Positions 160 to 62,836 of a DNA stretch of 64,000 nt are shown in pieces. The DNA is taken from assembly GCA_040954595.2 (NCBI GenBank), contig CM082581.2:3464699-3528698 (forward strand). Direction: 5' to 3'. Both the position numbers and the translations under genes were made by a program. This DNA is from Balanoglossus misakiensis. Lineage: Eukaryota; Animalia; Hemichordata. Numbering within the stretch: the first letter of the stretch is position 1; every line of letters begins with the position of its first letter. Below the pieces are notes generated by a model. The model had not been told where the DNA came from and made no database searches. It was given only the letters and a program-made list of their open reading frames with translations.

Positions 160-4750
<4,591 letters not shown>

Positions 4751-9115: not shown

Positions 9116-25808
<16,693 letters not shown>

Positions 25809-27299
25809 TGTTGTTAGTTATATTCCCCTTTCCAACACTCTAACGGGAGATAACTTGCCCGAAAGTCGAAATTAACTAGCTCACTGCGACATGCAAGGAT
25901 ATCACATGCACTCTCGATCGAGCGCCTGAGTGCTTGTTCGTTTGTTCGTGCATACTATTCTCTCTACTAGGAAAAATACAGAGGGCGCACTGTATTGAAC
26001 AATATGAATGACATGTATTTGACAGGATCGTTGGGATAAAGGATACGGAGCCAATTTTGATCAAAATTGTTATAGAGATGTTGTTTCCCACCATGTATTC
26101 ATATATTTCGAGACCCCTCAGTCATCAACAATCAATAACATGCAAATTTGCATATTTTAGTTTAATTTAATTTACTGCTTTGAAGGTAAATTTACACATT
26201 TTCAGTTTTTGTCAAACTATGTGTACATATGAGCATATTCATTTCATATTACTGTGGTTTGTCATAATGTGGTCTATGTTTTAATTTATCTATCACAACT
26301 AGCCAGGTGCATGGTGTGTGGACTTGGATGCCGTGGGCAGACAAACACACACACAAAACAGAATCTAAAAGTTAACACACTTGAAAATACTTATTAAAAT
26401 GGTCTTATAGTCCCTAGACCCATATAGACCCTAGGGTCAGACAAAACTCTGGCGTGGAACACAGCAGACATAACCAGATAACGCGATATCCATGTTATAA
26501 CTTCAATTTCAGACACAAGAATGGTTAATTAAGTTATTTAAACTGTTGGCAATTGATATATCTTTTTTTCGTGTATCTGTTGGCACTTCCAACTTGAGTG
26601 TGCATGCATCTAACTACTAGCTGCAATAATTGTAGCTCCGATGGGTGCCATAATAAATAATTAACTTCTTTGGGTAAATTATGGCATAATTATAACGAGT
26701 ACCTACAGCCAAATTTATCAACTTTTGCCTAATAAAATTTGCTTTGCTGCTACTTCGACTTGAGGGTGCATCCATTTGAGCAGCGCAGCCAGCGGCGCGG
26801 CGGGGGAAAGCGCCCGCACTGGCCCGCACTGAAAAAATGGGATCTACCATTATTCGGGGGTAGGAGCGAGACCAGGTAGTTTGGGCCGTAATCAGATCAC
26901 TTCAGATAGCCATATTGTAAGTCTTTGAGCGGCGGTGTGGCACTGAAGTCTGTGGAGAGGGAATCGTTGGTTACGTAAGGTATGTTGTGTTCATACTCCT
27001 GATGATTTACATTTTGTACACTCAAAACAAAAACAAGATAGGTCCACAACTGCCATGCCATTATATGTACCACAGTGACCCCATGCCAAACACGCGTTCT
27101 GTCATGTACCGTCTTATGAAAAGTACAAGCTGCAGTGAGGAGAGACGCTTCTACATCCAGCTTTTGACCCATCACTGTTTACTACACTACAGTAAAAACG
27201 GAACAACGTTCGATTTTATGTTTATTTATGTTAGAGGTAGCTGTGGTACGCAGCTGTACCGTTGGGGGGGGGGGCTGATTACCCGTTGGGAGAATCAGC

Positions 27300-27332
<33 letters not shown>

Positions 27333-28356
27333 ACGGTAGAGCTAGATGCGAGGTGAACGATTATCACGTGATTGTCCAAGGTGGTTGAGATATGTTTTGG
27401 TCTACATGTTAAGTGTGAGTATGTAGCAATGAGGGTTATTGCGGAAGACAGTGGAATCAAGACAAGTAAAGTACATTCACATGCAGTCCCTCTAGCCTCA
27501 TTGCCAACAGGGGTTAATTGAGGACACAGAATGGTATCATGAAAAGTGGGTCAAATCAATATAGCTCAGCCAGGTGAACTAAATCGGCTAGTTTAGGGCC
27601 AGGAAATTTCATGATTTATAACAAAGAGGTGGTCAGAGGAATCAGGGGAGGGTGTCATTTTAGATTTGGAAATTCGACAAATTTCTACCATTTATGCTGA
27701 TATCAAATTCCATAGTGAAAATTTTGTATTTCCTGTGAAATCAAGTTGTTGTTTTGATTGCATCAGAAATGGTAATCATACGAGAATGTCAGTTTTGCCC
27801 TGATTGGAGGAAAAGTTGAATGACATACATCACGTGGAGGTATTGTTAGAAATCAGAAATGCAATTATGAAGGTGTGGAGAATGTCAACAAAAGGAGCAT
27901 CTTAATTATGAATACTTGTTCTTAATTGCTACACTGATCAGGGCTCTCAGCAGGCCATTAAAGCATAAGTGGGCAACAATACAAATTAATTAACATAACA
28001 ATTGTGTCTATTGTTGTGCAAAACCACCACTACTCAATAATAAATTCTGCGGGAGAACACTACTCCTCTTGCACTATCATATGATCAGAATACGTGTTTC
28101 GCTGTCCAAGACTTGTTACACTTCTCAGACTAGAGGCCACAGTTCATCAGATAACTTTCCTGTTGGCTGGCCAACTATAGCCATTAATTATCACACATAG
28201 CAGTTTAGCAGATTGTGTGATATTTTCCCTTGCCAAAATTGGGGTTACCAAAACCACTAGCTCCCATATACACACTTTGGGTGCACTTATAATTGTAACA
28301 CAGACTGCCTCAAATTGTGTTGGGATGTACTTCAAGTTCAATGGCACCAGAAATAT

Positions 28357-32400: not shown

Positions 32401-34435
32401 TCTTTCAGAAATCATGCAGTGATCCGAATGTGTGTGCTTTTATGGTAGAACCAATCCAAGGTGAGGCTGGTGTCTTTGTACCAGACCCAGGCTATCTAAA
32501 AGGTGTCAGAGACATATGCACCAAAAATAATGTAAGTACCAGTATGTCATCACAATAATATCAGTAGGTTTTACTAATTCTATATCAATTCTCTACACTT
32601 AAATTCCCAGACTAACATATACCATTGAAAAAATGTGAATATTTTTTGAAGAAGAGATTAATAAAACTGTGACATCAGAGACCATTGTAGACCCTTCCTC
32701 TAGATGACATCAATGTTTTTAACCCAAAATAACTGATCATAAGCAAATATATCATACTAACAATATCAATTTGTAAAGCCTTTGCTAATTGTCGGCTATG
32801 GAGAAGATTTGTCCCTTCCAGAATCAATGCATGTCTAAAGTATTAACATTCAGTTATAGAAACAGTGCTTCACATCACTTAATGAAATCTTCCATTCTGG
32901 GCCTTGATTACTCATAATTAAAAAAATATATGTGAAGTCCAGTTCTTAAATGTACTACAGTGGCAATGGAAAGAAAACTCCAAAACTAAGATTTTTCTTT
33001 GATAAATATATGTTGAATATGAATGTTTGTTGTACTCTGCAGGTTCTTTTTATTGCTGATGAAGTTCAGACTGGTCTATCCAGGACTGGCAAGCGATTGT
33101 GTGTGGATCATGAAGATGTACGACCAGACATTGTTATACTGGGCAAAGCATTGTCAGGAGGTCTTTATCCCGTAAGTTTCAATAATTTGTTCATTCGTCC
33201 AAATTTTCGTGTACTACCAACCAAGTCTGACCAATCTTTGTTCTGGTTATGACAAAGCAAGAAAAATGGCATAGAACAGGAATAATACATGTTCATAATG
33301 GTATCTGTTTGTAAGCGTATTTGTTAGCTTAGAAGCATTTACTAAAGACATACCTGAAACAAACCCCTGAGTCACATTGATAAACCAAGGCAATATAGAA
33401 TACAAGAATGCATGTTTGTCACCATGTAAACTTGCTTTCCACCCATGTTAAAGGTATATGGTCACCTATGCAAATTTAGCTACAGTCACTATGGCAAATT
33501 GAGGTCTAGCTAATGACAGATTTTCAGCGGGTGGCACATGCGAAAGAAAGAGTGCTGCCATATGTTCTTTAGAAGTGAACACTCAAATGTGCCATTTCAG
33601 CCATATATGGGCGTGTGTAAATTGAAGGTGTCCGTAAACCTTTAACTTTGATGCGTTGTGATGCTTTCCAGGTTTCAGCTGTTCTCTGCGATGATGAAAT
33701 CATGCTGACCATCAAACCGGGAGAACATGGATCCACATACGGTGGCAACCCTGTGGGGTGCAAAGTAGCAATAGCATCACTTCAAGTATTGGAAGAGGAA
33801 AAACTGTCCGAAAATGCAGAGAGACTGGGACACATTCTACGCGCTGAACTGAACAAACTTGACCGCAACATTGTGACACAAGTGAGAGGCAAAGGACTGC
33901 TGAATGCCATTGTCATCAAGCCCACTCCAGGTATTGAAGATGCACGCACAGAATACTGTAAAATGGGAAATTTTCCCTTTTGATAAATTTCCGAGAACTT
34001 CGCGAGAGCCAAAAAAACGTGAAAATAAAAAGTCACTTAAAAATGTTTTTCAGATATATCGGTGCAGTGAAATACGAGAACATGGAAATTAATTGTTGAT
34101 TTTTACAGACTCTATCTGATAATCACCTCTTCCTTTATACTTGATCAGCAGATACAAAGCCACTCATTGATATGCATCATGGTCGTCAGTCATTCATGTA
34201 CATGTAACAAATGGGAGCACAGTGTCCCTGACACTATTTTTCTGAATTATTTCTCTGTTTGGTTTTTACAGATTATGATGCATGGAAGGTGTGTCTTCGT
34301 TTGCGTGACAACGGTCTTTTGTGCAAACCTACCCATCAAGACATCATTCGACTTGCTCCACCACTGGTCATAACAGAAGAACAGATACATGAATGTGTTG
34401 CCATCCTCTCTGAAACCATGGCATCATTCGGTTAA
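29419..34435 (+). CDS. OAT: Ornithine aminotransferase, mitochondrial
   Basis: Exons 29419-29590, 31115-31339, 32005-32228, 32409-32531, 33043-33171, 33672-33930, 34272-34435; total 1296 nt (431 aa). Arg-rich transit peptide, [48 protein letters not shown] lysine in [19 protein letters not shown]. Confidence 0.98.
29600..30014. mobile_element. TA-flanked TIR element with internal direct repeats, 9 nt downstream of the donor of the first OAT coding exon
   Basis: ta|CAGTGCAGCTTAGGAATAGCTTTCCAA ... TTGGAAAGCTATTCCTAAGCTGCACTG|ta; perfect 27-bp TIR; ~80-bp internal segment duplicated at ~29668 and ~29795. Confidence 0.85.
30212..30296. mobile_element. 85-bp piggyBac-like mini-MITE
   Basis: ttaa|CCCTTTCAC ... 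GTGAAAGGG|ttaa. Confidence 0.75.
33452..33641. mobile_element. MITE family A copy in an OAT intron
   Basis: TTAA-flanked, AGGTATATGGTCACCT left end. Confidence 0.8.
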
Positions 34436-34633
34436 ACATATCTTGCCTATTTTCATGGTTCCCTTGACTTCAAAACTAAAGCTTATTTCCAGTAATGGAA
34501 AAAAAATATCTTTTAGACATTGACAGTGAAACGGATCACATAATCATACTTTTAAATTGATGTTGGTAAATGTGACTGTGGGTGTAAGTTTTAAGGAAAA
34601 TCAGGATGATTTATCAATGTTTATTGATATTAA

Positions 34634-34818
34634 AGGTATACGGTCACCTATGCAAATTTAGCTACAGTTACCATGGCAAACTGAGATCTAGCCAATCACA
34701 GATTTTCAGTGGGTGGCACACGCGAAAACAAGAGCGCCACCATATGTTCTTTAGAACACTCAAATATGCCATTTCACCCATATATGGGCGTATGTAAATT
34801 AGGGGTGACCGTTTACCT
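34634..34818. mobile_element. MITE family A copy ~200 nt after the OAT stop codon
   Basis: ttaa|AGGTATACGGTCACCT ... GGTGACCGTTTACCT|ttaa. Confidence 0.85.
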
Positions 34819-36599
34819 TTAAAATGCAAAAATATGGATTAAAATATGATTGTGTGTAGATGAGTCATTGTGGATTGAGATGAAACCTGACTGGATTGAT
34901 GTTAACCCTTTTTGCCAAGCAATACTTCCACTGTATTCATTGCCAATGTAAATGCCTTTTGTTACATCTGCCTTTGTTTGAAAATTGTCGCTTTCATTGG
35001 AAACAAAATCTTTATTGGTGTTTCACTTTGGAGTGTGTCAGTCGTTGTTTCAGACAGAGGCAGTGTGTATGACATGTTACTTTCTCCATTGGCCATCTGT
35101 GATCAAAAGTGTGTACACTCATGGGTAGATAATTCTGGAAAGACATCTGAAACAATATTTTGATTTCTGCATTGTTGGCTGGTGACTAATGACGCTACAA
35201 ATAAATGTGTATGTGCACAAACTGTTTGATAGTTTGTTTCAAATTGGTAGCTGTGTCATGGAGTCACATGACATTGACATCACTTACAGTCATTGAAGTA
35301 GACTCAGCCTCTTTCTCTTGAATCTTTAATAGCTTTTGTTCGGGAAATCTAAAAAATGAAGTATTGAATCTTCTCAAAGAAATGAAGGCATTGAGGTTGA
35401 TGTAGAGTCATAGACTAATGTAACTGGGAGACTTTTAACTGTAGTGTTTGTTTCGTAACTGCCATACTTGATGAAATTGCTACTGCCAATTATGGAAAAT
35501 ACAAAAAAACTTATTTTCTTTCATCACACTCAGGGGATAAGTTCATGAAATGAGAAACGGCATATGGCTTTTTCAGAGACCTGTTCAAACAAGAATTAAC
35601 AGTACATGTATACCACTTTCTTCTCTTTATATATGCAAATATGTCTTTCAGAAATTCATTCCTGACTTACTGTCCATGTAGTGATCGAGCGCACATACCG
35701 GTACTTGTCAAACAAGTACATGAATCATGTACTGCTCATTCTGAATAAAATTTGCTATTCTGTCAAAATGAGTTTTTGGCATTTTATTATGCAGATTCAT
35801 CAATACCAGTTATAAATTATCTACATCAAGTGTTTCAATCCTAACAGGAAATGCACACATGAAGAAATGTATCCTATAAACACACTTTCTAGCAATGAGA
35901 TTAAAATTGTGAATGTCTCATTTCCACTCAGGGTATTCTGCATTTAGATCATATGAATTTTTTAACACCTAATGGTGTTAATACCCCAAAGAGGATTTTG
36001 TTAACTTTTGGTATTCTTGGTTAGCCAGACCCCTCTGCTTCTTCCATTGGGCACTCAAGAAAGAGGGTCTGGGGAAATACTATAGAAAAATCTCTGGGCA
36101 AAGATGGCCGACTCGAGGCAAAAGCGATGCATGATGGTCGACATTTATGACATTTGATATTATAAACTGCAGAAAAACCTCCACTCTGAAATGGGAAAAA
36201 GGCCAAAAATCCATGAGGTCTACATCTTCTACAGATGCTGACATAATGATAAATTAGGTAACCCCCTGTACATGAAATTTGGAAATAAATTTTGGATATT
36301 TCAGTGTTCCTTGAATTTTTATTAAAATAGTATTAAAGCATGACAAAATGCATCTCACTGTGTTTGGCCTAAAATCTCCCAAGCTCTGATAAAATGAAAG
36401 ATCATGATGATTGAAAGTCTGAAAACGAACATGCTTTTAACTCCTTTGGTCTAAGTTTTCTCAGTTAGAAAATTTGTTATTGATACTTTTATTGCCCATT
36501 GGAGAAAAGTTTCTAAAATAAGTTTCGAAAATGACGTCATGGTTCTGCCTGATAGGATGCACATGCGCAAGTTTCTAAGTGAACGTCCTTTCAAAATGG

Positions 36600-36853
36600 T
36601 CAATTCAGATTATTTACTTGAGTTACCTGGTAAGTATTTTATTGGATGCAATAGTTGAAACCTTGCGATGAAGGCGCATATCATTGTACTCTTCACAAAG
36701 AATTTTTTTTAGGTAAAACATCAATTTTAGATTATTTACTTGAATTACCAGGTAAGTATTTTATTGGATGCATTAAAACTTGCATTGTTGAAACCTTGCA
36801 ATGAAGGCGCATATCACTGTACTCCACAAAGAAAGTTATTTTAGGTAAAACAT
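36600..36853 (+). repeat. ~122-130-bp imperfect tandem duplication containing the helicase exon end and splice donor
   Basis: GATTATTTACTTGA.TTACC.GGTAAGTATTTTATTGGATGCA...GAAGGCGCATATCA.TGTACT...TTAGGTAAAACAT occurs twice. Confidence 0.85.
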
Positions 36854-38934
36854 GAAAATTACGTGCAAAAATTGTCATTGAAAATCAGAAATATGCCTAT
36901 TTTACTTCATCATTCAGAATGGAAGGGGCAGTCAAGTAACTACCTCTTTACTAATTTAAATTGCAGTACATGTATGCAATTTCTTGTTCTATCAACAAGC
37001 GTGTTTTTAGAAGCAAAACAACAGATTCTCAGACTCACTTTCAATTCATGAAACAAAAGCAAATTTAATCTAAAAACATGATTTGTGTAAAGTGATACAT
37101 TACTCTATGTACACAAGGAAAGCTGGTTTTATTGAAGTTCACAAGTGAAAAATTTGAAGTAAAAAAATATATACAGATATTTTGAACTCTACAAATAAAA
37201 AAAAAAGGTTTTCACAGTATCTTTCTATAGTGTGAGTTCAAGACAATGTCCCTTTTTAACAAATAAAGCACATAACAAAATTACATTTCATTTTAATTTG
37301 CAATACATTTCTCATTTGGCATTTGACTCCCTCAGTGGTTTCTTTTTCTTTTTAAGGGGTTCGCCTGAACATTGTGTATACAGAGGTACCTTGATACCTC
37401 CTGTGTTTGACTTTCTTGTACGAATGGTCTGTTCAAGTATGGTACTACATGTAGTTACTACTTTCGCGTATGCTGAATATGTTGGATTGGTTGTGTTGCC
37501 ATTGTATAACCCCCTCTCTTGGCAAAAGTGATTTTCAACTATATCACTATTAAAACGACTGGGCACCAAACCCCAACCAGGATATTCAGTTGCCATTGAT
37601 TTTGAAACGTACAGAAATCCCAAAATGGACGAGGCTAGGTCTTCTCTGCATTGGGCAGACATCAACATTTTAGATTTTACTGATTTATCCTGCTGTGAAT
37701 TGATGACATCCCCCTCCCATTCTTGGAACCAGGCATGAATACCTTCTAATTTATCAAGGCGCTCATAGTCATTGGCAGTGATTGGCCTACTGTCTTTGAA
37801 AGTTTCTATTAGACATGATGTTTGTTCCAGAAGGGTGATGGCTCCATTCAGATGAAGGCCATTTGGTAGACTTGCCCTATAGCATTTCATCAAATGTAAC
37901 ATATTTGTGTCAAGCATTTCAGCAGCAAGATGATTTCTCATCTTTTCAGTTTGGTTTGGATACATATGAGTATTGGTCACCTTGTGGTGAATTGGTCTTG
38001 AATTCGTTTTCCAGTCCCATTCCACAGCTTCAACCCAACTTTTCCAGACAATGAATTGCCCCCCATACTGTAATTTTCGCTTATGATATCTCTCATCTCC
38101 ACTTGACAGAATAGCATTGCGTATTTTTTTGATAACATGCGAAATATCCTGGCAATGGGCAATCTTACGAGATGGGTCCACCAAATGGGTGCTTAAGAAT
38201 TTGACGTCAATTGGAGGGCCACTGAAGTGCATATGGGTGAATGATCTGTTTTGTTCACCTCCATCCTGGCAGATATAGTCGACTGTAAAACCCCAGTCTT
38301 GCAGTTTAGAAATTACATTCCAGATATTTATAAATATCTCTGAGGCTTTTACACCACTTGTTGGATAGTGAGCAATGGGGAAACGAAATCCTGTGTTACC
38401 CAGAAATATCAGTTGCCATGCCTCGGTGGCCAACTGCCGTGTGAATCCCTTATGTTTCATCACCGACAAATTAAATGCTTCATCACCCAAGTCTATTAAT
38501 CCTACCAGTTTCAGTCCATTCCCCTTTCTTTCAAGAACAAGCTCATCCTGAATTTTACACTCATCGTGTATAATGCTATCATGCATGCCAGGAGCTGGTA
38601 TTTGCCTCTGTGGCCGCGGCTTTATACATCCATGTAATCAGATTTCATCCCGTATGCCACTCGCCTGTGGTACACAGTGTTTGTAATGACGTAACAGTCT
38701 CGCTGAGGGCAGAATAAGCATTTTACTGTCATATAAATCCTGATAAGCTCTTGGGCTCCTGATCCACAAAGTGAGACACACTTTTATGATCTGTGGATCC
38801 CACCTTCTTGCATAGGGACTTTTACACATCAGTGCCTCATGTTGGCTTTTAAGGAGGATTTTCATTTCTGCTGATGCTGATGGATATACTTGGGAGAGCA
38901 CTTCTTCCATTTCTTTGTGGTCGTCTTCTATTAA

Positions 38935-39732
38935 GGCTGCATTCACAAACACCTCTGGAGGGGGGGGCAGGAGAATTGAGGGGGGGGATTTGAAAAAATT
39001 GAGGGTATGTGAGGGGGGGGATTTGAAATAATTTAGGGACTGAAAGGGGGGGACTTGAAAACTTTAACGACTAAATATTTATTTTGAGTCCACAAAATGC
39101 AGTTTCGCGCCCTTTATTTTACAAAATTTTCTCATGTGGGAGGGGGACACCCCCTCCCACACCCACCCCCTCCATTCATCAACACCTTTCAATCATTGAC
39201 TGGTTTATCTAGTGTCCCAGGTCAGGGGACTTGCCCCACCCCATGATAACTTTGAGCGCCGACGGTTAAATTTGTCCTCCCCAACATACCTGTAGTTGAG
39301 TTAATTTGCTTTTGCCGGGTTCATTAAAATGCAGCTTTGAGCTCTGTATTTTAGAAAATTTTCTTACGTGGGAGGGGGACACCCCCTCCCAAACCCACCC
39401 CTTTCAATTCTCGGTTTACAAAGTCTCCAAACACAGAATACAAATATATGTACTTAAAAAATAAAAACAATGTTCAGTTTTAATACCCACTGATGAGGGA
39501 AAACATCAGTTTCAAATTCTTTTCATGGGAGCGCTGTTTTTCTTTTTACAAGATAGATAGGTGATGTGTTTTGCTCTGTGAAAGACAATGGGGGGGGATT
39601 TCAAAATTTTGGCAGTTCGGAAGGGGGGGATTTGAAAATATTGGCAGTTCGGAAGGGGGGCATGTGAAAATTAGCGGTAAAAAAAATTGAATTCTCCCGC
39701 CCCCCCCTCCAGAGGTGTTTGTGAATGCAGCC
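38935..39732. mobile_element. PIF/Harbinger-like non-autonomous element (TAA TSD) inserted in the transposase ORF
   Basis: taa|GGCTGCATTCACAAACACCTCTGGAGGGGGGG ... CCCCCCCTCCAGAGGTGTTTGTGAATGCAGCC|taa. Confidence 0.92.
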
Positions 39733-41541
39733 TAAGAGCACCTTGCCATCACTCTCTTCATCTACATTATTACATGTAGCAGCCTTCCTTGGGTCTTCTC
39801 TGTTAATCCTTATAAATGCCGTTTGACATGTGTGACAAGCAGTACCAATAGAGGTCCAGTTCAGTACTTGTTGGCACCTCGAGTCTCGCAGTCGATAGTC
39901 AGCAGGGTTATCACTACAGGCAGGGCTATACATCTCTTTTATAAGTTTAGACATCCTTTCTGGTGTGGCCGCTGTCTTTGCTTTTGAAATGGACATGCCT
40001 GTACAGATGTTTATTTTGTCAACAATATTCAGTATATCCTGTACTTCTTCTTTGGTAGGTTGAAATTTATTTGAAATGAACAAGTGTTTCAAATCAATGT
40101 CAACATTACGGACTTGCAGTTTCCATTCATTCTGTAGAAATGTCACTTTTTTGAAGATCTGGTTGCCGTTGCAAACTTCACTTGACAGAACGCCAACCTG
40201 TACCACATTGCTTTCAGCTGATGGAAGGTGAAATGCATTTGCAGGAAGGAACTTTGTTATATCATCCAGTGCGCACAGCTCTTCTGTATCTTTGTTACAC
40301 TTAAACTTCAGCCCTTTGTACACTTGGTGCCGCTTTCCAGTTGTACATTCAGTGGTTTTACCATTTCTTACTGGGAACAAAGCCTGCAACACTTTCGAAA
40401 AAGTATTATGCGTAACCTTTTCAGCAGACTTGCTGGCAGCTTTCACGTAGGCATCCCATACAGCCATTTGTTTTATGCAACTTGATTCACAAACTTCAAG
40501 ATTTTGGTAACACCTACAAAGTAAAGCAGAAAATGCAAGTGAGAAATATGAGAAATATTGTTGAAATTAAATTAGAATTGTAGAAAGATGTATACTAAGC
40601 CTGATTTGTTGGCACTTATTGGTTATTTCTATGCACAATTGAAATACAAAATGCCTAACGTTAGACCTTATACAGTTAGTGGGTACAACAAAATTCCCAG
40701 TACAATACAACTAGTGGCATACAGTCACATCTTTGTCTCTTCTCTGGTTCATTTATTCATCCAGAGTAACCCTGCATTTACATAAACTAAAAATGTTTAA
40801 TGCAGTTCATAATTTGCATACCAAACATGACTGGAGCTCAGCTGAAAATAAAAGCTGCAGAGTTCCTGTTATATTGCAGTTACTTCTTTTCCAGGCTGTT
40901 TCTTTGCAAACCATATTAACTTTATTGTGTTTTTTTTTCAATTACAGGAGTGATGAAAACCTATAAAGCTGTAGACAGTGGTGATCCTAAGTACTTCAAG
41001 GATTTTAATGCACCTACAAACCTTCACTTGAAAAAAGATGCCCCTGTCATGTTGACCATGAATTTAAATGATAAACTGGTGAATGGCCTTATCGGTCACA
41101 TAATTGACTTTGTTGACCAAGGGCCTCGAGTCTTTTTTGAGGCTATACAAAAAACTATCATCATCACAACGTACACATTTTCCAAGTACAGACCAGATGT
41201 GAAAAAAGTTGTGGCTACTCGTGAACAAATTCCATTGAAGCTGGCCTTTGCCATGACGGTGCATAAATCGCAGAGTCTGTCCATTCCACGGTTACAAGTG
41301 GACTGCCGCCATATGATGTTACCAGGACAACTAGGTGTGGCGATTGGTAGGGCAACAGAGAAAAAAGGACTAAGAATCCTGAACTTTAAACAGTCTTTAC
41401 TCAAACCCCAGCCAGACAAAGTTATCGAATTTTATAATTCACCATGTGCCATGTTTAAGAGTGACATGAGCTGCTGTACTTCCCTGGCATTTGACAAGTC
41501 TGAACTTCAAGATGACGACCATGCTTTTGTAGGCAGCATGT

Positions 41542-41542
<1 letters not shown>

Positions 41543-41581
<39 letters not shown>
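41543..41581 (+). repeat. (GAT)n trinucleotide repeat encoding poly-Asp in the helicase ORF
   Basis: tatgatgatgatgat... translated in frame as YDDDDDDDDDDDDD. Confidence 0.9.
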
Positions 41582-41942
41582 CCAACAGATGATACAAGCC
41601 TTAGAGCAAGTGCTGAGTGAAATTAATGAGACATCTGTGTCAAGTGATTCAGGATGTGATGGAGGCTATGGTGTGAGGAACAGCGATCACAATACTCTGC
41701 CTGATCACAAAGCAATAGACAGAATCACCAAAGAACTGAAATACAGAGATCCAAAAACACAGGAGCAGCGAGACCTTAATGCTGCACTTGAAGAGCTTGT
41801 AGATAGCAGACACTTCAGGCCATTTTGCCATAAATTGTATTTCAAATATAATGAAATAGTGCCCAAAACACTTAACCAGACTCAGCTGCAAAACAAAAAT
41901 TTCACAGAGCTCTATAAACAGTTTGCTTTATTTATGAGCAGC

Positions 41943-42140
41943 AAGGTGGGCGGAAGTTGGTCCTGGCGCTTTTTTTCCCATGATTCAAATTACAGTAAAC
42001 GCCATATTGGAAATTCTGCCAACTTTCCCTAGATTTTGTAAAAAATCGCGCGACCTATACATGGCGAATATGTTTTTTTCTGATAGAGTGACATTAAAGC
42101 TACCAAATTATGTAGAAATCGGCTATGACGGATTTCCCCT
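41943..42140. mobile_element. Single-arm fragment of family B inside the helicase-PHD gene
   Basis: Near-identical to 13581-13768; ends CGGATTTCCCCT|ttaa. Confidence 0.9.
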
Positions 42141-43616
42141 TTAAGACTTAAGTCAGAACTGGCTTCAAATACACAATATATAGAAAACATGAATATGAAA
42201 AAGCCTGAGCTTGCCTTGCTCTGTCAGGCATATAACATTTCAAAATCAGAACAGAAGACAAAGATAAACATGATCAATGCATTAAAGACAACAATAATAA
42301 ATAGTCAACAAATGCCATATCCAGACAAGATAAAATCACCAACACAGCAAAGACAACACAGTGAACAGATAAACACTTCTTTTCATACACTGTCTGAACA
42401 GCAGCCAGGGCCAAGTGGTACTTCAAAGGTCCACAATCAAGAAGTTGCTGTACCACTACCAGATAAAGATGCAAAGACATCTTAATCTGAGCTTGACAAA
42501 GAACAGCCAGATTCAGGAAACACAGTGGCCAGAGCAGAGACTGTTAAACAGAAAAGGAAAAGTACACACAGAAACATAAAACGGCCAAAAAGACAGAAAG
42601 TTGCTAAATGGCCCTGTGGTAGATGCAGTGAAAATTGTCTTTCAGATGCAATATGTTGTGATATTTGCCAAATGTGGTACCATTTTAGCTGTGTTGATAT
42701 TACTGGAGACAGTGTGGATGATGATGAGGATTGGTTATGCCACAAATGTTTGATAAAAGATTGAACCGAATCAGAAGCAGGAAATGATAGGTCAGGTGTA
42801 GTTGAAATAATTATTACGTGTGTGTAAGGGGTGGCCGCTTCCAAATGTAATAAGACTAGGTGTCATCAAGCATCACATTACATGTAATTAACAAATGACA
42901 TGTTAAATGTTTTACCTTATTTTTATCAAATTTTTATCACTGCTGTTTTGTTTTTACAAATTTCTTCTTATTTTTATTGGTGTTGCACTAGGCACACCAT
43001 TGACATTTACATTACATAATACATATAAACAGCCCTTTCAGGAATACATGTATAATCAAAACCAAAATGCCCTCTTCAGGGCCACTACGAAGGTGGAATA
43101 AAGTGCAGGATGCGACACTCAGGGACTCTGCATGTTTTGTTCACTAGTTCAGCTATCTATCACTTACCTGCATACACCAATTTATACAGCCTGAGCCAGC
43201 ACAGTCATTTATAATTATATTATTAAAAATGAATAGAAAAATTTACTCAAAAATCACTTGATAGAAAAAGATATACACTTACCAAGAAACTGCATACACA
43301 TTTTCAGAAGCCATTGCCAATGTCGCCTCGCAGTTACAGAAAAAGATTTGCGAACGCACATGAAGATGTTACGCTGACCAGGATCTGAAATTCAAATGTT
43401 GGCGGTTGTCGCGCAATTTCTTTATGTGTCAGTGGGGTATAGGCCTAGGCCCGAACATAGCGCGAGAGAAACCACGGCCATCTTGTTCTAGCTCGCACAC
43501 AAGCTCTGCAGTGCATTATGGGTAAAAGTAATGTTTATCAACAAAGGCTAAATCGGGACGATACCCGCCGTTTAACATGTGCTTCTATGTCAAAGGGATG
43601 GGAGAAGGTGTTCAGT

Positions 43617-43749
43617 CAATCTGATTAAAATCAGATGTAGGGAACGGCGACGTGGTTTTTTTATGCTGTCGCCTCACACTAGTTTTGTGAGGCGACGACA
43701 GCATAAAAAACCACGTCGCCGTTCCCTACATCTGATTTTAATCAGATTG
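43617..43749. mobile_element. 133-bp hairpin MITE with 9-bp TSD
   Basis: gtgttcagt|CAATCTGATTAAAATCAGATGTAGGGAACGGCGACGTGG ... CCACGTCGCCGTTCCCTACATCTGATTTTAATCAGATTG|gtgttcagt. Confidence 0.88.
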
Positions 43750-43831
43750 GTGTTCAGTATACATAGGTTTCCATATTAGACCAGGTTTGGTTGTTACCGA
43801 TTGTAGATCCTTAACCTCTCTTCAGTATCAT

Positions 43832-44215
43832 CAGTGTACGAAATAAAGCCTGTCCGACAGTCCGAGACTGGTTGTTTTTCAGGACTGGTAAAAATAAAAT
43901 GTTACCAGTCCGACAGACAGGTTGATTTTAACGTGGGAGTTGACCAGTGGTATCATGGTATCTTTTAGACTTTCCCCAGTTCATGTATTGCAAATAAAAG
44001 AAACAATGATCTAAGTAATGTAAAGAGAAACTGAAAGATGATTCCATCCCATCTTCAATTGTTCAAAGATGAGGTAATACCTTCTCAGTTGTATTTGATT
44101 ACATTTAATTGTAAGGTATAATATCAGGACTGGTAAGTTTTTGGCAGGACTGGCAACTTTTTGAAGTTGCCAGTCCTGGTGACTGGTTGATATTTCCTAC
44201 GAATTTCGAACACTG
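43832..44215. mobile_element. ~384-bp TIR element with CA...TG ends and 7-bp TSD
   Basis: gtatcat|CAGTGTACGAAAT ... ATTTCGAACACTG|gtatcat; near-identical inverted copy at 62455-62836. Confidence 0.9.
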
Positions 44216-44829
44216 GTATCATACCCCATTACGTCTCAATCAGTGACACTGGCATAGCTAGAGCTTTGTTTCAGAATACAGTACTTTATTTTCCGTGAAA
44301 ATGATAGCGACATACAATCAAATTAAAGTTTGGCTGATACAAACTTTACACTTCACATAACTTGACAGCAGTATTAAAACAAGTGTGAAACATTTTTGTC
44401 AATGTCTGTTCTATCTCAATCTCATTTTGAGAACATGAAAAAAATCTAACATTAACACGAACAGAATAAATACCTTTTTTTTCAATGTCTCTATCCACAG
44501 AGGTTCCAATGTTCAATCCTATCAGACAGTCATCAAGTGCTAAATCTAGTTTAATATTCAAAAGTAGGATTATGTATACAGTATAGTAAAACAAAACAAA
44601 AACAATATGATTATTCACAACTACCCTGAATAAAAACATACAACTCACAAAGTATGTTACTGCAACCAAAATACTTTCTTTATACACTCTCCACATCATC
44701 CCTGTAGTTATTCGTTCTGGTTGATGACACAATTTTTTTTATATGTTTGTAACGCTTTGATTACTACAGTCTGTCCTCATTATATTTATATCAATAAATA
44801 TGCTTTTTTTGACTCGTCTAAGATTCCTG

Positions 44830-44906
44830 TAGTCCTGTTCCCAGCCCCATTCCTAACGCTGGCTGCACTACACCCAGCCATGGGAATGGGTCAGGGAACC
44901 AGACTA
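44830..44906. mobile_element. Short TAG...CTA hairpin element
   Basis: TAGTCCTGTTCCCAGCCCCATTCC ... GGAATGGGTCAGGGAACCAGACTA; AGATTCCTG repeated on both flanks (imperfect TSD). Confidence 0.55.
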
Positions 44907-46624
44907 TTGAGATTCCTGGCCCTCCATACACTACGAATTTGATTACCGGTACCTTGTAGTGCAAGATTCATTGCCTAGCAACAGCAAAGCCATCTATCAA
45001 CATGCCCATTGTACAGACTTCAAAATTCAGTTTGTGGATTCAATTTGTCTTTGATCAGAGATTGTTGGTAGCAATTTTGAATACACCATTAGTTCCAATC
45101 TGTATCATGCATAATTAGTTCAACCTTTCATATGGTTTGACACTGACACAAAAATAGCTCACAGCATTTGGACCAGTGGTTTCAGAAGACAAGTGTTGAC
45201 AGATTGCCAGACAATCACTCTATCTGATGAGCTCCATGTTGCTGACCAACAGAGCTAAAATTTAAAAACTGAAGAAATTCATTTGGGGAAAATAAGCTTT
45301 GGGGAGGGGGGGGGGGCAGTGAAAGTCATTCTGAAATGGAATGTTGACAGAACTGGCATTAGAAACAAATACATCGACTTGTAAATGATGACATTAGAAA
45401 AAAAAAAGCTCACTACTTAACACCAGACTATAACACATATTTTGCATTACAGCTATGTGAAATTGAATCCAGACAATCTTTCTAGGGTTGCAGTGGGAAG
45501 AGACATCAGTCTTTTGAGACAGTTGGGGGAACATTGTGATCCATTATTTGGGAACTGTGGCAAGGCTGGTCACTCTTGATGGACAAGGTCAAATACCTGA
45601 CATTGAGACATTGAAGGTTTCATTGGTGATGAAGAGAAGTTAGCCACTTCCATCAATGGTCAAGCAATAGTGCAACTACTACCTTCAGGAGTGGTGACCA
45701 TTACTACATCCCCTCCACCTTAAAAGCTATGGTATCTCCCTGATTTCCAGAAAAAAATAGATTTAGCCTGTATCTTTTGTGTTTGAGGACGAAAACCTGA
45801 ACACAGTTTTAAAGCTGCGAGAAGTTCCATATGAATGCATATTTTCGAAGATGATCAACATCTTACTCAGTGGAGTCGAGCTAGGGAGACTTACGTTTAT
45901 ATTTGCTTAAATTTCCATCACAATGCCAATGTGTAAAGGACACCAATGTAACTGTATGCTTATTTGCATTTGCTTATGGCAAATGAACTGAATTCCCAGC
46001 AAATTGAAGTGATTGATCCCGAGGGAGTAACAAGTGAAGTTTTAGTCTGTTACTTTGGACCTAGTCTCCAGTTGACTCAGTATGCACATATTTATTAGCA
46101 ATATCTTATAAAGTATGCCCCACACTTCAAGAGGTTGTAACATTAAACTGTAACACTTTAATTTTGCGACACTTAAGCTTGAGGCAATGGCAACAATAAA
46201 GTATTTAATGCCCCCATTTTCTGACATTTGTTTCTTGTACACAACTGATCCTAACAACTCTGAAGTTTTCATTTTCTGTTCACTGTAACACATATGACAG
46301 CATGTGGTGACATTTTGCTTTCGTACGATGGGGTTGCTTTCTGTCCTTGTCAATACAAAATCAACACAGAAGAATCTTCAAGCAGTTGAAACTGTTTTGA
46401 TTTACACGGACCCTCAACTTCCAGTATCCAGACCCATTCATCTGTCAAGTGTGCGTGGTGCGTGGACTCAGTAGGGCCTATATATGGCCAAGCCAGCGAG
46501 ATTTGGTACAATACGCCAATGTCTGTAAATGAGCCATGCCAAGATAGGACTGCAAAGAGACTCAATACCTCGTTTAAACCACTTGCCAAGGGTGCCCCAT
46601 GTAACACCCCTGGCAGGAAGAGAG

Positions 46625-49600
46625 TTAATGAGCTGCTGTAGCGCTTGCTGTAGACTGATCTAAGTTGATGATTGCCCCGGATCGAATCTCCATATGGCCG
46701 TTTCTTTGATGTCCATATTCAAACTTGATTCTCAATTCTCCAATCTTGGACTTGGGTAGAATATCTGGAATCCACTCTATCACTAGAGGTGTTGGCTCCT
46801 TCTGATCTGGTGCAGTGTTACCTTTAATCAAAGAGAAGTAGTATCAGATGATTCACAAAATACTATAGACAGTATAGACGAAGGCTTGAAGTGAGTGATA
46901 CCTAAGCAAATGTCTACAGAAACTGAGTTATGATACGGTAAATTACTTTGGGGCTCTGGTCTGGTTGTTCTTGGCCTAAAGTTAGATAATCCTGGCAACT
47001 TACCCACTTTGAGGTAGGTCTTCAATTCAAATGGTTTGATTGGTGGTTGACCTTCACTCTTTCTATACGCTTCAGCTATTGTTTCCACTTGGACTTTAGG
47101 CACATTGAACTCAGAGAATGAACCATCTCGATTCTCCACAAAGCTGCGTGTTATTTCCAGTGGCATCTACGAGTAGAAAGTCAATTATAACATCGTTAAA
47201 TAGTTTTCTGTATAAAGGTATTGCCATGGTAATACCTGGCAAAAGCAAGTTTGTGATCTAGTATCCAAAAGTGACTCTTAACAACGAGAGATGCCCCATA
47301 TACTTGTAAGGCCCCAGTCATCACCCACAGAGACTGATAAAACTTACATCAGGAGTGTCAAAGATCTGCTTCACATGGATAATGTTGTTTATATGCCACG
47401 TGTACTTGGAGAATGTTCCCAGTGGTAGTGCATCTTTCCTGATAAATGCCGTTGTTGAGTTTGGTAGTCGCTTTTTCTTGCTACCAGTTGATATCCTTTG
47501 TTGTAACATGTCAAAGAACTTCTGGGGAACATGGAATACCAGTGGTTCAGGATTACCTGCAATGTACAGCCAGATTAACAGGAAGGGTTTATGGGCAGTA
47601 GGCAAAGAGGTTGACAAATAACTAATACCAGGTTCACACAGGGTAAAATCCGAAACGTTTCTGCAACAATATTGTAAACACAGAGCATTAATCCTTTGAA
47701 GACTTGTTCTCACTAAAAGTTTCGACACCAGTGCTACATGTATGCCAGTGTTTACTCTCTGCAAACACAGGGGATAAGCCCACAGAATCTCCGTGCGTCC
47801 ACACACTAAACTTTTGGACACTGTTTTGAAATAAACACCGTCTAAATGGTCATGTTTAGCAACACGGCAACTAACAAAATTGAGGACGTCGAGGACATTA
47901 CAGCAACATGTTTTAGTTTCTATACCTGCATATGCGTTCTAGATGACTTTGTGACAGTTTTGATAATGTTTAGAAGTAAATGAATGTTAATCCATAAATG
48001 GAAAATGCCTCAGCTTTTCGGTGATCAAGAGAACCTTCTGAAAGTTGGTAGCAGACTGAAGTGTTGCAGACCTGGCAAACTGCGAATGGTTTGAAAACCA
48101 CTCGCGTCCAGTGTGATTGACTTCACAATGGAAACTGACCAAAGACAATGGGCTATACCTAATAAACATACACAAGTCACTGCAGGGTGGCGCTTTTGAA
48201 CGGTGTTTGTTTATCTTTGCGTTCTCACTGACTATTTGCGTCGGAGCGCTGGCCCAGCACTGGCCCTGACCCACCACCCATCGCCGTCGCAAATTAACAC
48301 CGGCACAGCACCGGTGTAAAGCGTTCTCACTTGTTTTTTTCCGTCAGTGTCAAATCTACACCGGTGTAGCACCGGTGTAAACGTGCCAGTGTCAATGCCC
48401 TTTGAGTTGCTTGTGTTCACACACACAAAGTTTACGTATAGGCGCTGAGGCTTGGCCCCATAGACAATGAGTTGCAGAGAGGTGTTAATCCTTGCACTGG
48501 TTCAGGTCTGACCGGCAAAGCCGTCTCAAATCTGAGACGTTTCAGGACCACTTAAACCATTCAAACATGATAATTTATGCCAGTATTTCATCTGAGATTT
48601 TTCAGAACCGTCTTGATGGTCCCTGTGTGACCCCCATATGAGAGGATACTTTATTTAACAGTAATACTGCACAGAAGATGGGAGGTGTAAACATTCAATT
48701 ATCTGGACTCTGAGACTTACAGGTTTGAGTATGCAAACATTTGGGATATGCAAACCAAGAGGTTAGGGTCAACTTTTGGTAAATTTTATATTTACAAAAG
48801 GGAACATTTGCAGTAAATGTTGCCTTGTGTCCAAATGTGTACATACTAATTCCACAGACCTGATTATTCCCAATCAACTCACCATCAAACTGATAATGCA
48901 TAGTCTGATTAATCCGTTCAGTGACACTTCCCAACCATTCATTAAAACACAGAGTGCTTTCCTGGTCATCTGGCACACCTGGTTTCTTCGTTCCAGATGG
49001 CAAACTGATGGTGCCACTAAACTTCTTGATGGGACTCTTCTTGCTTGTTGTGTTGGCACTATCCTGCAGGGTCAGTAGGGCACTACTGGCTTGAACTACA
49101 TTTAATATCAAAACATTTGCAAGAAAAAGAAACTTAATGGTGCACAGACATTTTTAGAAAAAAGGGTAAATAAATGTCCCAATAGAAGTAATATGGCTAT
49201 AATACAATCAGCCCTCATTTCTGCATGTTACAAAACTTCTGTGTAACAACCTACTGTAAACTCAAACAATGATTACATGAAGGAATGAATGTTGGACAGG
49301 TTAACTGTATGTCCCTATTTAACGAATGGCATGAGGCCCATCTACATGTAGGATTTCCCTTGGACAGAATCTACATGGACATAACATCTACAACTTGGAA
49401 AACACAGTAAACCGTCCATCCAAACTGTCAGCCAGACACATGAGCACCAATAATGCCCTAAAGAGATGTGAATGACTACGATGATTTGAAACAGTCATGA
49501 CAGCTGTCAATCTCAATCTTTGTCCGGACATAGAAGTTACAAGAAGGTTTGTACATGAACTGGATAGGGTAAATGTGTGAAACCAGTTTTAATACACTGC

Positions 49601-51919
49601 TGTGAAACCACAGGCAATGCTTTCTTTCAACAAGATATGCAAATGAAAAGAAACAAAACAGCAAAGACTAAGAGGTCAACCGCTTCACTGCCACGTACCT
49701 AAGGAGTCATCTCTTTTCCTCTTCTTTCCCACCTTGGGACTTTCTATAGTTTCAACAATAGTAGTTGTCCCGTCTTGTGTGTCTGTATAAACAGTCATGA
49801 TCTGCCTTTCTGGTGTTGCAGCTGCCACTTTAACCAAATAATACAAGATTTTAGATCGTGGAATTTGGGTGAATAACCAAAGAAAACAAATGTACACAAA
49901 ATCAAACATCTAGGAGACATCTAGGTGTAGAGACTTGACCATACCAGTTGCCTCTTTTGATATCGCGAAAATTTCCTGTCGCGAAAATAACCTGTTTTAC
50001 AGTAAATTCCTAGAAAAATGGTACCAATAACCATTAACAATTTTACAGTCACATGACCTATGCACCTTCTTACATTGACACAATATGGGAGATGTTGCAA
50101 GTTTTAATTAAAGACTTTCCCCGGCACCAGTTATTTTAATTACCCAAGTCTTAATTACTTAATTATCGCCCAATACTAGTGCAGTCCGGTTTACTCTGTC
50201 TAAGTAACTATGGGAATCCATTACAGATTGCAACAAATCCAGACTTGGTAGTTAAGTGCGGTAAAACCCATGATAGCTTCCTGTGTATTTCTATGTTTGC
50301 CACGTACAATGTATAACTTTCAATTCTGACTTTTCAGATTGTGATTGCAGATATGCCATCAGCATCAGATAACAATTATACCTGCCATACAACACGATGA
50401 CCTCAGCACTTTTAGCCCATGAAGCCTGGCACCTTTCCACCACTATTTTGTGCATTTTTGCAAAACTCGCACAAGTTATACATGGTGAAAATAGTTTTTC
50501 TCAAATAACTAAACCCAAGGCTACATGTAGCAGTAGTAGTAAGTACATACGTAAAAATCAGCCTTGCTGAACTTCCTCTGTAATTACATTTGTATGTAAA
50601 ACTGTCATTGCATTTGTTCCATACTGTTCATATAGCTCAAAGGAAATAGTTGATAGGACTCAACAGCAAAGTTTTGCTTGATATTGCACAGTGGGTTTAT
50701 ACTCTCGATTACCCAGACCCCTCTGCTTCTTCTGATGTGCTCCAGAAAATGGTCTGGGGAAATACTATAGAACAATTTGTAAATTTTAGTCGAGTTGCAT
50801 ACTGACAGATTAACCAATCAGCGGCTGATCGAAATCCTGGCAGTGGCCATTTTGTTTTAAAAAATCGTTCTATAGTATTTCCCCAGACCCTTTTCTGGAA
50901 CACAGCAGAAGAAGCAGAGGGGTCTGGGTAACCGAGACTAAGTGGGTTTATTGACCTTTTAGCTCCTCACCATCAGGATCAATTGTGTCACTTCAAATTA
51001 TGGCAACATTGGTATTGAGATAAGCATATGAAAGAAAATAATTATATTATAATCAGAAATATCTGTTCGTATAACACTGACCTTGCTGCACATGAGCATC
51101 TAAATTGATGTAGTAGTTGAATTCTTCAGACAATTTATCATCACTCGCAAAAGCACAAATGCACGCATAGAAATGCACACATCGCCTTTTATGTTCTTCA
51201 ATATGTCCAATGGTTTTCAAGTTCTTGAAGGCTCTGCACGTACAATGGAATTTTCTCTCTATCACACCGCCTTTCTTTGTGTTCTCACTGAACGAGAAAT
51301 GTAGGAATCCAAGCGGTTGCTTTGGATTTGTCTTGCACTTGACAACCATGATGTTCTTGGTTACTCTTTGCACCAATGGTCCCGTGGTTTCTGTTGCCAG
51401 CAACCAGATGGCCTGTTTGACTTCATTGGAAACTGGCAGGGAGTTCAGAACAGAATTCTTCAGTGTCAAAGGCACCGCATCCTGACCGCATTGCAGTGCG
51501 AGTTTGATGTGGTTGCAAGGTGTTTGAACAACTCCCCCCTGCGATCCCGGTCGCAAACACGCATCCACAAAACATCTTCCTGTCTGTCCAAGAACTGAGC
51601 TGTCAACTGTCGACGGCTGGCCAGCTTGCAACTCTGGGGAGAGTGGCAACTGGACAAAACCCCGATAGTCTGGCCCTCTATCTCGAAGTCGCACAGAAAA
51701 TACTTGTACTGTTGATCCGGTGATAATCTTAACAGCGTCTGCACTATGTCCACCTCTGCGTTGTCTGTCCTTGAAAACTGCATTGCACGCTTTATTTTTA
51801 CAACTGAGACCTCTGGTGCCATTATAGGTGCCACACTTTGGGCATTTCTTAACACCTCGCATAGTAGGCCTGCCAAGGTCTTCAAAAGTTATCTTCGGTT
51901 TTTCAGGAGCAGCCATCAT
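46625..51919 (-). CDS. C2orf42: C2orf42-like protein (N-terminal treble-clef zinc finger)
   Basis: Exons 51919-51082, 49827-49699, 49095-48883, 47556-47348, 47166-47004, 46821-46625; total 1749 nt (582 aa). Motifs [119 protein letters not shown] match recalled C2orf42. Confidence 0.92.
50700..50940. mobile_element. Non-autonomous element with TA(G/C)...CTA ends, ~75-bp TIRs and 10-bp TSD (AcademH-like)
   Basis: agtgggttta|TACTCTCGATTACCCAGACCCCTCTGCTTCTTCTG ... CAGAAGAAGCAGAGGGGTCTGGGTAACCGAGACTA|agtgggttta. Confidence 0.85.
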
Positions 51920-53059
51920 TTTGAATTTATTTCAAAGGAACCTACATGCATACATCACCTGTAAAGTAAAACAGAGAACTGGTTATTTAATAAAGAGAGT
52001 ATAATGCATGTTTTGGAAAGACTTTCTCGGTATAATTCAGGTGTATACACTGCAGTACTGTATAAACTGGCATATACCAGTACATTAACTGCACCATTTC
52101 AACCATAATTCGCATGGTGCACTGTTTTGAATTTTGTGTTGGCATTTTGGGCGTGTTTTTACCACAGGGCCTAAAAAAAACACCCAGTTTAGAGTACACA
52201 AAATTATGTTACATATCTGCAGTGTTTCAACTAGATGGTGGGATGGGGATATTCACCCCCTGTTGCCATGTAGGCACCCCATAGCAATTTGTCAATGGGT
52301 GACCAGTGCCCCTTAAAATAATGTCACTCACATGTTGGAGATATTACATTCCCCACTGCCCAAAGAGTCGAATCGCCCCAAAATATTCTGACAAAAAGGG
52401 GACATATCCCCCACCCCACCATGTTGACGTCATCCTGGATGGAAAACTGATTCAAGTGTTTTCTGGTGCCTGGTAACCCCCCCCCCCCCCCTCTCTCTCA
52501 CACACACATTGTTTTGATGTGGCTGAATATTACCAATGGTCGAGGGCATATTCCTTGCTGCGGATCCGTAGCTCTATAACTCAAGGAATCGGTTATATTC
52601 GTTGGGAGAGTTTTAGATCTGCGGCACCACACTCCACAGCAAACACACCCGTAGCACCGAACTCCCAGCATTTCATGCATGTACTCTCTCAATGCATTTG
52701 TGTGAAGCTGCGAGTTCGGGCTGTAGGGATTAGGAGTGTGACCAGTTCAGAAATTCCGTCTTCTTAACTGTACTTTCGAAAATGTGGGATTAAATTACAG
52801 AAAATGGATACACACACGCACGTGACTATCCGCAAGATATTTCAAAGTACATGTATCGTCCACTGTCCAAGTGACAAACAAAATTGTATGGATTCAATCA
52901 TTGAATTCACAGTGTGTACATGTACTCCCTTGCCGGTCTAATTACATATTTCAGTATACGATACAATTACTTTCCGCATACAAACAGGAATAACATCCCC
53001 ATATCACTGTTTAACTATGGAACATCAATGTTTCTAAATATGATCAGTGGGCGTTTTAC

Positions 53060-62454: not shown

Positions 62455-62836
62455 CAGTGTTCGAAATTCATAGGAAATATCAACCAGTCACCAGGACTGG
62501 CAACTTCAAAAAGTTGCCAGTCCTGCCAAAAACTTACCAGTCCTGATTATACCTTACAATTAAATGTAATCAAATACAACTGAGAAGGTATTACCTCATC
62601 TTTGAACAATTGAAGATGGGATGGAATCATCTTCCAGTTTCTCTTTACATTACTTAGATCATTGTTTCTTTTATTTGCAATACATGAACTGAGGAAAGTC
62701 TAAAAGATGCCATGATACCACTGGTTAACTCCCACGTTAAAATCAACCTGTCTGTCGGACTGGTAACATTTTATTTTTACCAGTCCTGAAAAACAACCAG
62801 TCTCGGACTGTCGGACAGGCTTTATTTCGTACACTG
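62455..62836. mobile_element. Second copy of the 7-bp-TSD element, opposite orientation
   Basis: ctaacat|CAGTGTTCGAAAT ... ATTTCGTACACTG|ctaacat. Confidence 0.9.

Follow-up and report, generated by a model that had tools for sequence, protein, structure and literature searches.

How can two genes on opposite DNA strands come to lie so that the main exon of each falls within an intron of the other, and are genes so arranged parts of a single mobile unit? The question is raised by a stretch of 64,000 nucleotides from the hemichordate Balanoglossus misakiensis (GenBank assembly GCA_040954595.2, contig CM082581.2, positions 3,464,699 to 3,528,698 of the forward strand), which is termed the window here. 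The window is animal DNA of about 37% GC and contains many small non-autonomous transposons. Part of it carries a transposase gene on the minus strand and a helicase gene on the plus strand, and in all probability these are the remains of a decayed two-gene P-like transposon, whose interleaved order is likely to have arisen by an internal block swap from an ancestor with facing genes. Judged at the level of sequence, the two genes are indeed interleaved, and other members of the family show this anatomy again. Its parts are listed below; L numbers denote related loci.

36597–36629, plus strand: helicase exon remnant preceding the 2B domain, with the motif NSDxLLxLPG and a phase-1 donor; same motif and donor in L001, L003, L004, L009 and L014.
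36630–40947, plus strand: predicted helicase intron with transposase exon 2 inside it in antisense; in-phase join, both flanking exons at the same positions in L001, L003 and L009.
36721–36856, plus strand: tandem duplicate (83%) of the exon remnant and intron start, with a second donor at 36751.
37128–37133, minus strand: AATAAA past the transposase stop, within the helicase intron; a common hexamer.
37312–40513, minus strand: transposase exon 2, broken, with RFX-type winged helix, middle domain and P-type DDE core (PF21787; PF02257, below cut-off; 6P5A; 1DP7/8ZJR; three-frame view).
40514–43282, minus strand: predicted transposase intron 1 (2,769 nt, GT..AG) with the helicase terminal exon inside it in antisense; acceptor position and phase also in relatives.
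40948–42764, plus strand: helicase terminal exon with Pif1 2B domain, C-terminal motifs, acidic linker, unknown domain and PHD finger (PF21530 and PF00628).
43097–43102, plus strand: AATAAA past the helicase stop, within transposase intron 1; a common hexamer.
43283–43314, minus strand: predicted transposase exon 1, 11 codons with a split Trp at the end; in-phase join, a like exon in L012, L029 and L017, VSW in homologues.
43315–43700, minus strand: CpG-rich stretch 5′ of transposase exon 1, likely promoter (observed/expected (o/e) CpG ratio 1.03–1.08).

The order from left to right is therefore helicase exon (plus), transposase exon 2 (minus), helicase terminal exon (plus) and transposase exon 1 (minus). 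In the transposase, the 32-nt exon at 43314–43283 (minus) ends in the donor TG|GTAAGT and joins in phase 2 to the acceptor ..TTTGTAG|G at 40513 (minus), which supplies the G of the split Trp codon and opens the long transposase frame. A preliminary description of this DNA had proposed this join, and at the DNA level the Trp codon is indeed restored. In the helicase, the exon at 36597–36629 (plus) ends in the donor CCTG|GTAAGT and joins in phase 1 to the acceptor ..TTACAG|G at 40948, giving the reading LPG-VMKTY; a second donor, CCAG|GTAAGT, lies at 36751 (plus) in the tandem copy. The phase proposed earlier for a join from 36629 or 36751 to 40948 holds, but the upstream exon is only a remnant of about 33 nt. 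Each intron contains what had been ascribed to it: the helicase-PHD terminal exon and the AATAAA at 43097 (plus) in the transposase intron, and the transposase coding exon and the AATAAA at 37133–37128 (minus) in the helicase intron. Each hexamer is the first AATAAA past the stop of its gene, but both are weak evidence, because the hexamer is common (about 1.1 per kb per strand in the window) and an ATTAAA at 37292 (minus) is closer to the transposase stop.

The short transposase exon 1 is judged to be real on three independent lines of sequence evidence: the rarity of its pattern, its match to homologues and the CpG content upstream. In 100,000 nt of flanking sequence from the window, counted over both strands, the first-exon pattern ATG..TG|GT(A/G)AG occurs twice; the 6.5 kb that precede the transposase acceptor contain it once, at 43314. 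A relaxed pattern, with 14 occurrences in 100,000 nt, is still found a single time in these 6.5 kb. Homologues were collected with exon 2 alone as query, exon 1 being absent from it, and those running through the junction read IVSW, TVSW, GVSW or VTW, to be set beside AVSW from the window exon; the uninterrupted homologues P0038, P0045, P0052 and P0080 show VSW at the junction column. Across 142 protein records this column holds R in 27, W in nine, other letters in seven and a gap in 99, the R being the gene finder's read-through of AG|G from the intron. The 300 nt 5′ of the exon contain 17 CpG (o/e 1.03), whereas the 434-nt gap between the two acceptors contains one (o/e 0.09); the ratio for the window as a whole is 0.45, and 12 of its 213 300-nt bins reach 1.0. 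Among relatives, the ratio 5′ of exon 1 is 1.16 in L012, 1.64 in L029 and 1.31 in L017, compared with 0.07 and 0.34 between the acceptors of L012 and L029 and 0.36 in the L017 intron. The acceptor position and phase of transposase intron 1 are the same in 11 related loci, and the predicted junction positions are conserved in relatives for both genes, as the preliminary description had expected.

The minus-strand gene is identified as a P-type DDE transposase by a PF21787 match in the window (34.6 bits, cut-off 24.6) and by a profile of 15 homologues (A1) that matches the Drosophila P transposase 6P5A at E 7e-9 with the acidic motifs aligned; the window copy retains the motifs HDE, QDGG, QDISH and DIVE. 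An N-terminal THAP zinc finger is typical of the P superfamily. No THAP match was obtained in this transposase, and the N-terminus is instead modelled as an RFX-type winged helix: in a structure model built with 52 sequences (predicted local distance difference test score 92.7), the best two Foldseek matches are the RFX DNA-binding domains 1DP7 and 8ZJR (prob 1.0, E 0.012), which superpose with target template-modelling scores of 0.78 and 0.71 and a root mean square deviation of 2.2. The corresponding profile PF02257 matches the window at E 1.7e-4, below cut-off, and homologue P0006 at 3e-6, above cut-off. RFX X-box-like motifs were absent from the element ends with one relaxed pattern. The region of the GTP-binding insertion aligns to 6P5A 283–553; PF21788 matches one of two transposases there (P0015, E 9e-4, below cut-off), with no match in the window piece.

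The plus-strand gene encodes the C-terminal half of a Pif1 helicase, after which come an unknown domain and a PHD finger; PF21530 and PF00628 both exceed their cut-offs in the terminal exon. Its relatives match the Pif1 families PF05970/PF21530, and the annotations of Pecten, Mytilus, Mercenaria and Ostrea include full-length forms of about 1,000–1,050 residues; the frames begin at the PIF1 domain in L001, L012, L014 and P0022–24. Helicase proteins more than 90% alike lie on different chromosomes in Pecten maximus (three near full length) and Mytilus trossulus (two). A Helitron origin of the helicase was considered and rejected, there being no Rep; L012 also has terminal inverted repeats (TIRs) and a target duplication.

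The window copy itself, as its sequence reads, is dead: both large exons are broken and neither gene is intact, because of two insertions of miniature inverted-repeat transposable elements (MITEs), a deletion and frameshifts; the helicase has, in addition, lost its 5′ half. The two insertions are:

38935–39732: MITE within transposase exon 2, with 44-nt TIRs and a TAA target duplication.
41939–42144: right part of a MITE, 96% to the element at 13155–13773, at the helicase deletion site.

The transposase frame changes near 38640–38580 in a three-frame view. In the helicase, about 275 codons are absent, seen as a tblastn gap against residues 338–614 of P0017, and there is an in-frame stop at 42483–42485; tblastn with bivalve and L001 queries gave nothing convincing for the 5′ half (Walker A/B) anywhere in the window. 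No match to the ends of L012, L017 or L029 was obtained in the window, and the left end of the window element was not found there.

Relatives were drawn from 75 loci (L001 onward) found in a scan of metagenome contigs and four further loci (L076–L079) from a scan of prokaryote genomes; viral contigs scanned for relatives yielded none. L076–L079 bear introns and lie in contigs of two genomes titled Sedimenticola sp. MAG (metagenome-assembled genome), and are likely to be host DNA contaminating GTDB symbiont bins. A helicase is present in 29 of the 75 loci, a figure reached in two counts (L047 passed in one only, L024 in the other only), and is on the opposite strand to the transposase in 29 of 29. 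Where at least 2.5 kb is available downstream, the helicase is found there in 11 of 14 loci. In several relatives both large exons are open throughout, with frames of 774 and 775 codons in L001, 776 in L003, 647 in the L012 helicase exon and 541 in L029.

The clearest relative, L012, is a complete interleaved element of about 12 kb bounded by TIRs at 629–747 and 12511–12648, which begin CACAGG and end CCTGTG (5′-CA TIRs). It is flanked on both sides by an 8-bp target duplication, TCGGTAAT, and is the only locus with both flanks readable. Within it lie a first exon at 1337 (five codons and Trp), the helicase terminal exon at 5362–3425 (minus), the transposase acceptor at 6129 and the helicase 5′ exons at 12086–9409. 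L029 is likewise interleaved, with its first exon at 405, a helicase exon at 2386–4006 and the acceptor at 4608; an alternative first exon at 3299, antisense within the helicase coding exon, was set aside in favour of 405 with its CpG-rich context. L001 is inferred from its sequence to be interleaved, there being no TG|GT donor between the acceptors. L017, by contrast, is complete and plainly convergent, an order found in about ten distinct elements: its TIRs surround the pair of genes (the right end is cut by the contig), and a first exon of the same kind lies 200 nt from the TIR, followed by an intron of 739 nt. A CCAAT box and CpG-rich sequence lie within the L017 TIRs themselves (47–195 and 11550–11700), and mirrored promoters inside the TIRs may therefore drive both genes.

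Where the transposase exon is hosted by a helicase intron, three different introns serve. The first, at LP|G, is used in the window, L001, L002/3, L004, L009/10/24 and L014, that is, in five distinct relatives, with the donor seen in five of five and both flanks in L001, L003 and L009. The second follows a CC motif in eight loci of the L012 clade: L006, L007, L008, L011, L012 and L076, together with L029 and L050 by their acceptor side; L070 was dropped from this type, its helicase grouping with that of convergent L023. The third lies just after Walker A, in L078.

Some further observations were made on individual relatives. In L001 the transposase stop is 22 nt from the helicase donor (5930–6110 region), and the first AATAAA past this stop is the antisense of the pyrimidine tract of the helicase acceptor, both strands being used. 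An in-phase first-exon candidate ending CG|GTAGGC lies near 510 in L076, upstream of the acceptor. The ENA record P0018, a helicase of the window's clade, is continuous through the LP|G position; either the transposase cannot lie in this intron of its element, or the record represents a transcript. P0004 (KAJ8044896.1, Holothuria leucospilota), a 1,512-residue model, fuses transposase and helicase (from about motif IV to the PHD finger) on one strand, in contrast to the 29 of 29 opposite-strand loci. Its transposase groups with L003/L009, and it may be a same-strand nested form or a faulty gene model.

The trees bear on whether the two genes share a history. In the transposase tree of 62 rows (the window, 45 loci with enough sequence and 16 proteins), elements of the LP|G type form one clade (99) and those of the post-CC type a second (99), while convergent elements are scattered between the two. 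The helicase tree (43 rows) has the same clades, except for short non-overlapping fragments (L002/L003, L014). The helicase genes XP_033725340.1 of Pecten maximus and XP_045173548.2 of Mercenaria mercenaria belong to the L012 clade. After near-duplicates and helicase pieces of fewer than 300 residues were dropped, transposase and helicase patristic distances were correlated over 16 pairs (Mantel test, Spearman 0.59; 0 of 10,000 permutations as high). On these grounds of sequence and phylogeny the two genes are regarded as one mobile unit. The preliminary description had argued as much, reading the interleaving as the mark of one co-evolved unit, rather than of one transposable element inserted in another. 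The unit is upheld by the L012 TIRs and 8-bp duplication, the opposite strands in 29 of 29 loci and the correlated distances, but interleaving is not its cause, because relatives are convergent (L017), probably nested (L003/L009) or use other helicase introns in other lineages (L012/L029; L078). What the preliminary description had named as evidence against itself is seen in part, two lineages probably keeping their first exon inside the helicase intron; the predicted junction positions are conserved. The two-gene unit is likely to be older than the interleaving, and its exon order has likely been reshuffled several times; three host introns require at least three rearrangements in any case.

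How such an element might work and be rearranged can be outlined as follows. The start codons lie 200–700 nt from the ends and point inward (L012, L017), with two genes within one TIR element, and each gene would be driven by an inward-directed promoter near one end. The transposase would act by P-like cut-and-paste, binding the ends via its RFX domain, and the PHD finger would likely read chromatin. Host Pif1 promotes recombination-coupled DNA synthesis, and there is an even chance that the Pif1 helicase of this element aids refilling of the donor gap from the sister copy. In the ancestral order, T1-T2><H3′-H5′ (T, transposase; H, helicase), the block comprising T2 and H3′ would have been duplicated, as a tandem copy or by self-insertion, which is possible in gap repair. 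Loss of the first T2 and the second H3′ would then leave T1-H3′-T2-H5′. One breakpoint would lie within transposase intron 1 and the other within any helicase intron, and this free choice would explain the three different host introns. Both promoters and both reading frames would survive the swap, so the interleaved order would be tolerated; as a consequence, RNA would be made from both strands across the entire middle of the element. A second route, in which nesting came first and a new first exon was acquired later, is less favoured because the first exon is of the same kind, and at the same place near the end, in interleaved and convergent elements.

Several points weigh against this account. 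The block swap by duplication and loss is held to be the source of the interleaved order, among the possible routes, with somewhat better than even confidence. Splicing of both genes is predicted from DNA, and a first exon beyond the helicase exon is seen in three elements only (the window, L012 and L029); for L001 and L078 it is deduced from the absence of a TG|GT donor between the acceptors. A search of the window for a TIR pair between 34401–37300 and 42761–48000 gave only chance-level matches. The window's own clade includes L003 and L009, which are probably nested, to judge from candidate first exons inside the helicase intron: L003 has an in-phase candidate 94 nt upstream of the acceptor with CCAAT- and TATA-like motifs (CpG, at 0.60 versus 0.57, is not informative), and in L009 the sequence immediately 5′ of the acceptor includes a CpG-rich stretch (o/e 1.0) and offers two weak candidates. 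The trees are quick maximum-likelihood trees and unrooted. A single clade for all intron-hosted types is not rejected by the approximately unbiased (AU) test (p 0.43 with 23 rows, p 0.37 with 40 rows), and independent origins from a convergent state, as a shown result, were given up on these values.

Among the other explanations, the one that survives best holds that selection favoured interleaving for its action as a regulatory switch. Through converging polymerases and antisense introns, the transposase and the helicase would be expressed in mutual exclusion or would limit their own expression; the mature mRNAs, sharing little complementarity, would escape double-strand silencing. The idea draws strength from the three lineages that have placed the transposase exon in three different helicase introns and kept intact frames; convergent relatives are, however, widespread and complete (L017; about 10 distinct elements), and in L001 the first poly(A) hexamer after the transposase stop, at 6104, is past the next helicase exon (5953–6100), so that the mature mRNAs would overlap there. 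We regard it as possible but doubtful. A broader version is rather unlikely: a P-like lineage of marine invertebrates with RFX in place of THAP, its own Pif1-PHD helicase recopying the donor gap, and a repeatedly evolved antisense toggle between cutting and copying.

It is quite improbable that the window copy is merely nested, its transposase starting within 40514–40947 or in exon 2 and 43314–43283 being a chance pattern: the first-exon candidates of L003 and L009, in the window's clade, lend this some weight, but the window's 434-nt gap has its single CpG and lacks the ATG..TG|GT pattern, and the exon at 43314 fits the VSW of homologues though absent from the search query. That two unrelated elements are involved, or a host helicase gene struck by a P element, with no shared history, is highly improbable, for although the ends and helicase 5′ half of the window element are missing, and 46 of 75 loci (mostly short contigs) have no helicase, with L049 and L061 lacking one in 3.4 and 10 kb downstream, this is already largely refuted by L012, with its shared TIRs and target duplication, and L017, and is opposed by the constant opposite orientation (29/29), the congruent clades in both trees and the dispersed multi-copy helicase genes.

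The two-gene P-like transposon thus preferred can be compared with known systems. P elements have TIRs starting CA and a 7–8 bp target duplication, and the P superfamily moves by GTP-dependent cut-and-paste with ends staggered by 17 nt. The present family resembles this superfamily (Drosophila P, 6P5A; THAP9) in its DDE core, with DE-x-K, DG/DLG, DxxH and D-I-x-E motifs (PF21787), and in the L012 TIRs that start CA and the 8-bp duplication. It differs in having RFX and not THAP, a second gene encoding Pif1-PHD, a length of about 12 kb, TIRs of 120–150 nt, and interleaved, nested or convergent exon orders. AcademH and KolobokH also combine a DDE transposase with a helicase, which in AcademH is RecQ. 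They differ from the present family, where Pif1 (PF05970) with a PHD finger accompanies a P-type transposase, in having RecQ and a transposase of another superfamily. According to one report, the KolobokH helicase is RecQ and that of Kolobok-1_CCri is on the complementary strand (PMC9587614); AcademH transposons are treated in PMC10045372. Helitrons carry a Pif1-family helicase (PMC8788227). The present element is like Helitrons (RepHel) in this respect, but it is without a Rep/HUH domain, its transposase is of the DDE type, and TIRs and a target duplication are present. In Helitrons the Rep (HUH) nuclease is fused to the Pif1 domain, and TIRs and target duplications are lacking. MuDR (mudrA/mudrB) and ProtoRAG, like this family, have two convergent genes in one TIR element with promoters at the ends; they differ in that no exon of one gene is known to lie in an intron of the other. 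Nested or interleaved host genes are mentioned in PMC5534336 as a counting case. These are alike in that an exon on one strand falls in an intron on the other; here, however, a single mobile element contains both genes, and the arrangement recurs through different introns.

In the literature searched, with Repbase and subscription journals outside the search, neither a P-like element with Pif1 or RFX nor interleaved genes in a transposon are described. Oyster P families may already be entered in Repbase, so the novelty of the two-gene element is not certain, while that of recurring interleaving is less doubtful. A cut-and-paste element with its own Pif1 opens to experiment the standing question of how copy number rises in TIR transposons and what accessory helicases contribute to them. 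The family also provides a natural series of orders (convergent, nested, and interleaved via three introns) in which the two genes and the promoters at the ends stay the same, so that a neutral effect of antisense interleaving could be told directly from a regulatory one. Annotations of bivalve and sea-cucumber genomes list such elements as host 'PIF1' genes or as uncharacterised ones, and a gene finder would divide them or run them together.

The surroundings of the element include a host gene, ornithine aminotransferase, whose last coding exon is at 34271–34437 (plus; E 7e-20 versus human OAT), about 2 kb to the left. Just past the likely transposase promoter, at 43617–43749, is a 133-nt palindromic MITE with 45-nt arms and a 9-bp target duplication. 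A full MITE with long TIRs lies at 13155–13773, its right arm recurring at 41939–42144, with a diverged copy at 10251–10487. A 384-nt repeat is present in two copies (43832–44215 and 62455–62836) that are 98% identical, in opposite orientation and 18 kb apart. A TumE Pfam match at 26921–27385 (plus) is below cut-off (E 0.012) and probably due to chance. At 51056–51931 (minus), a 292-codon frame has a strong zf-tcix match (PF14952, E 2e-21) and is likely to be a host-gene exon.

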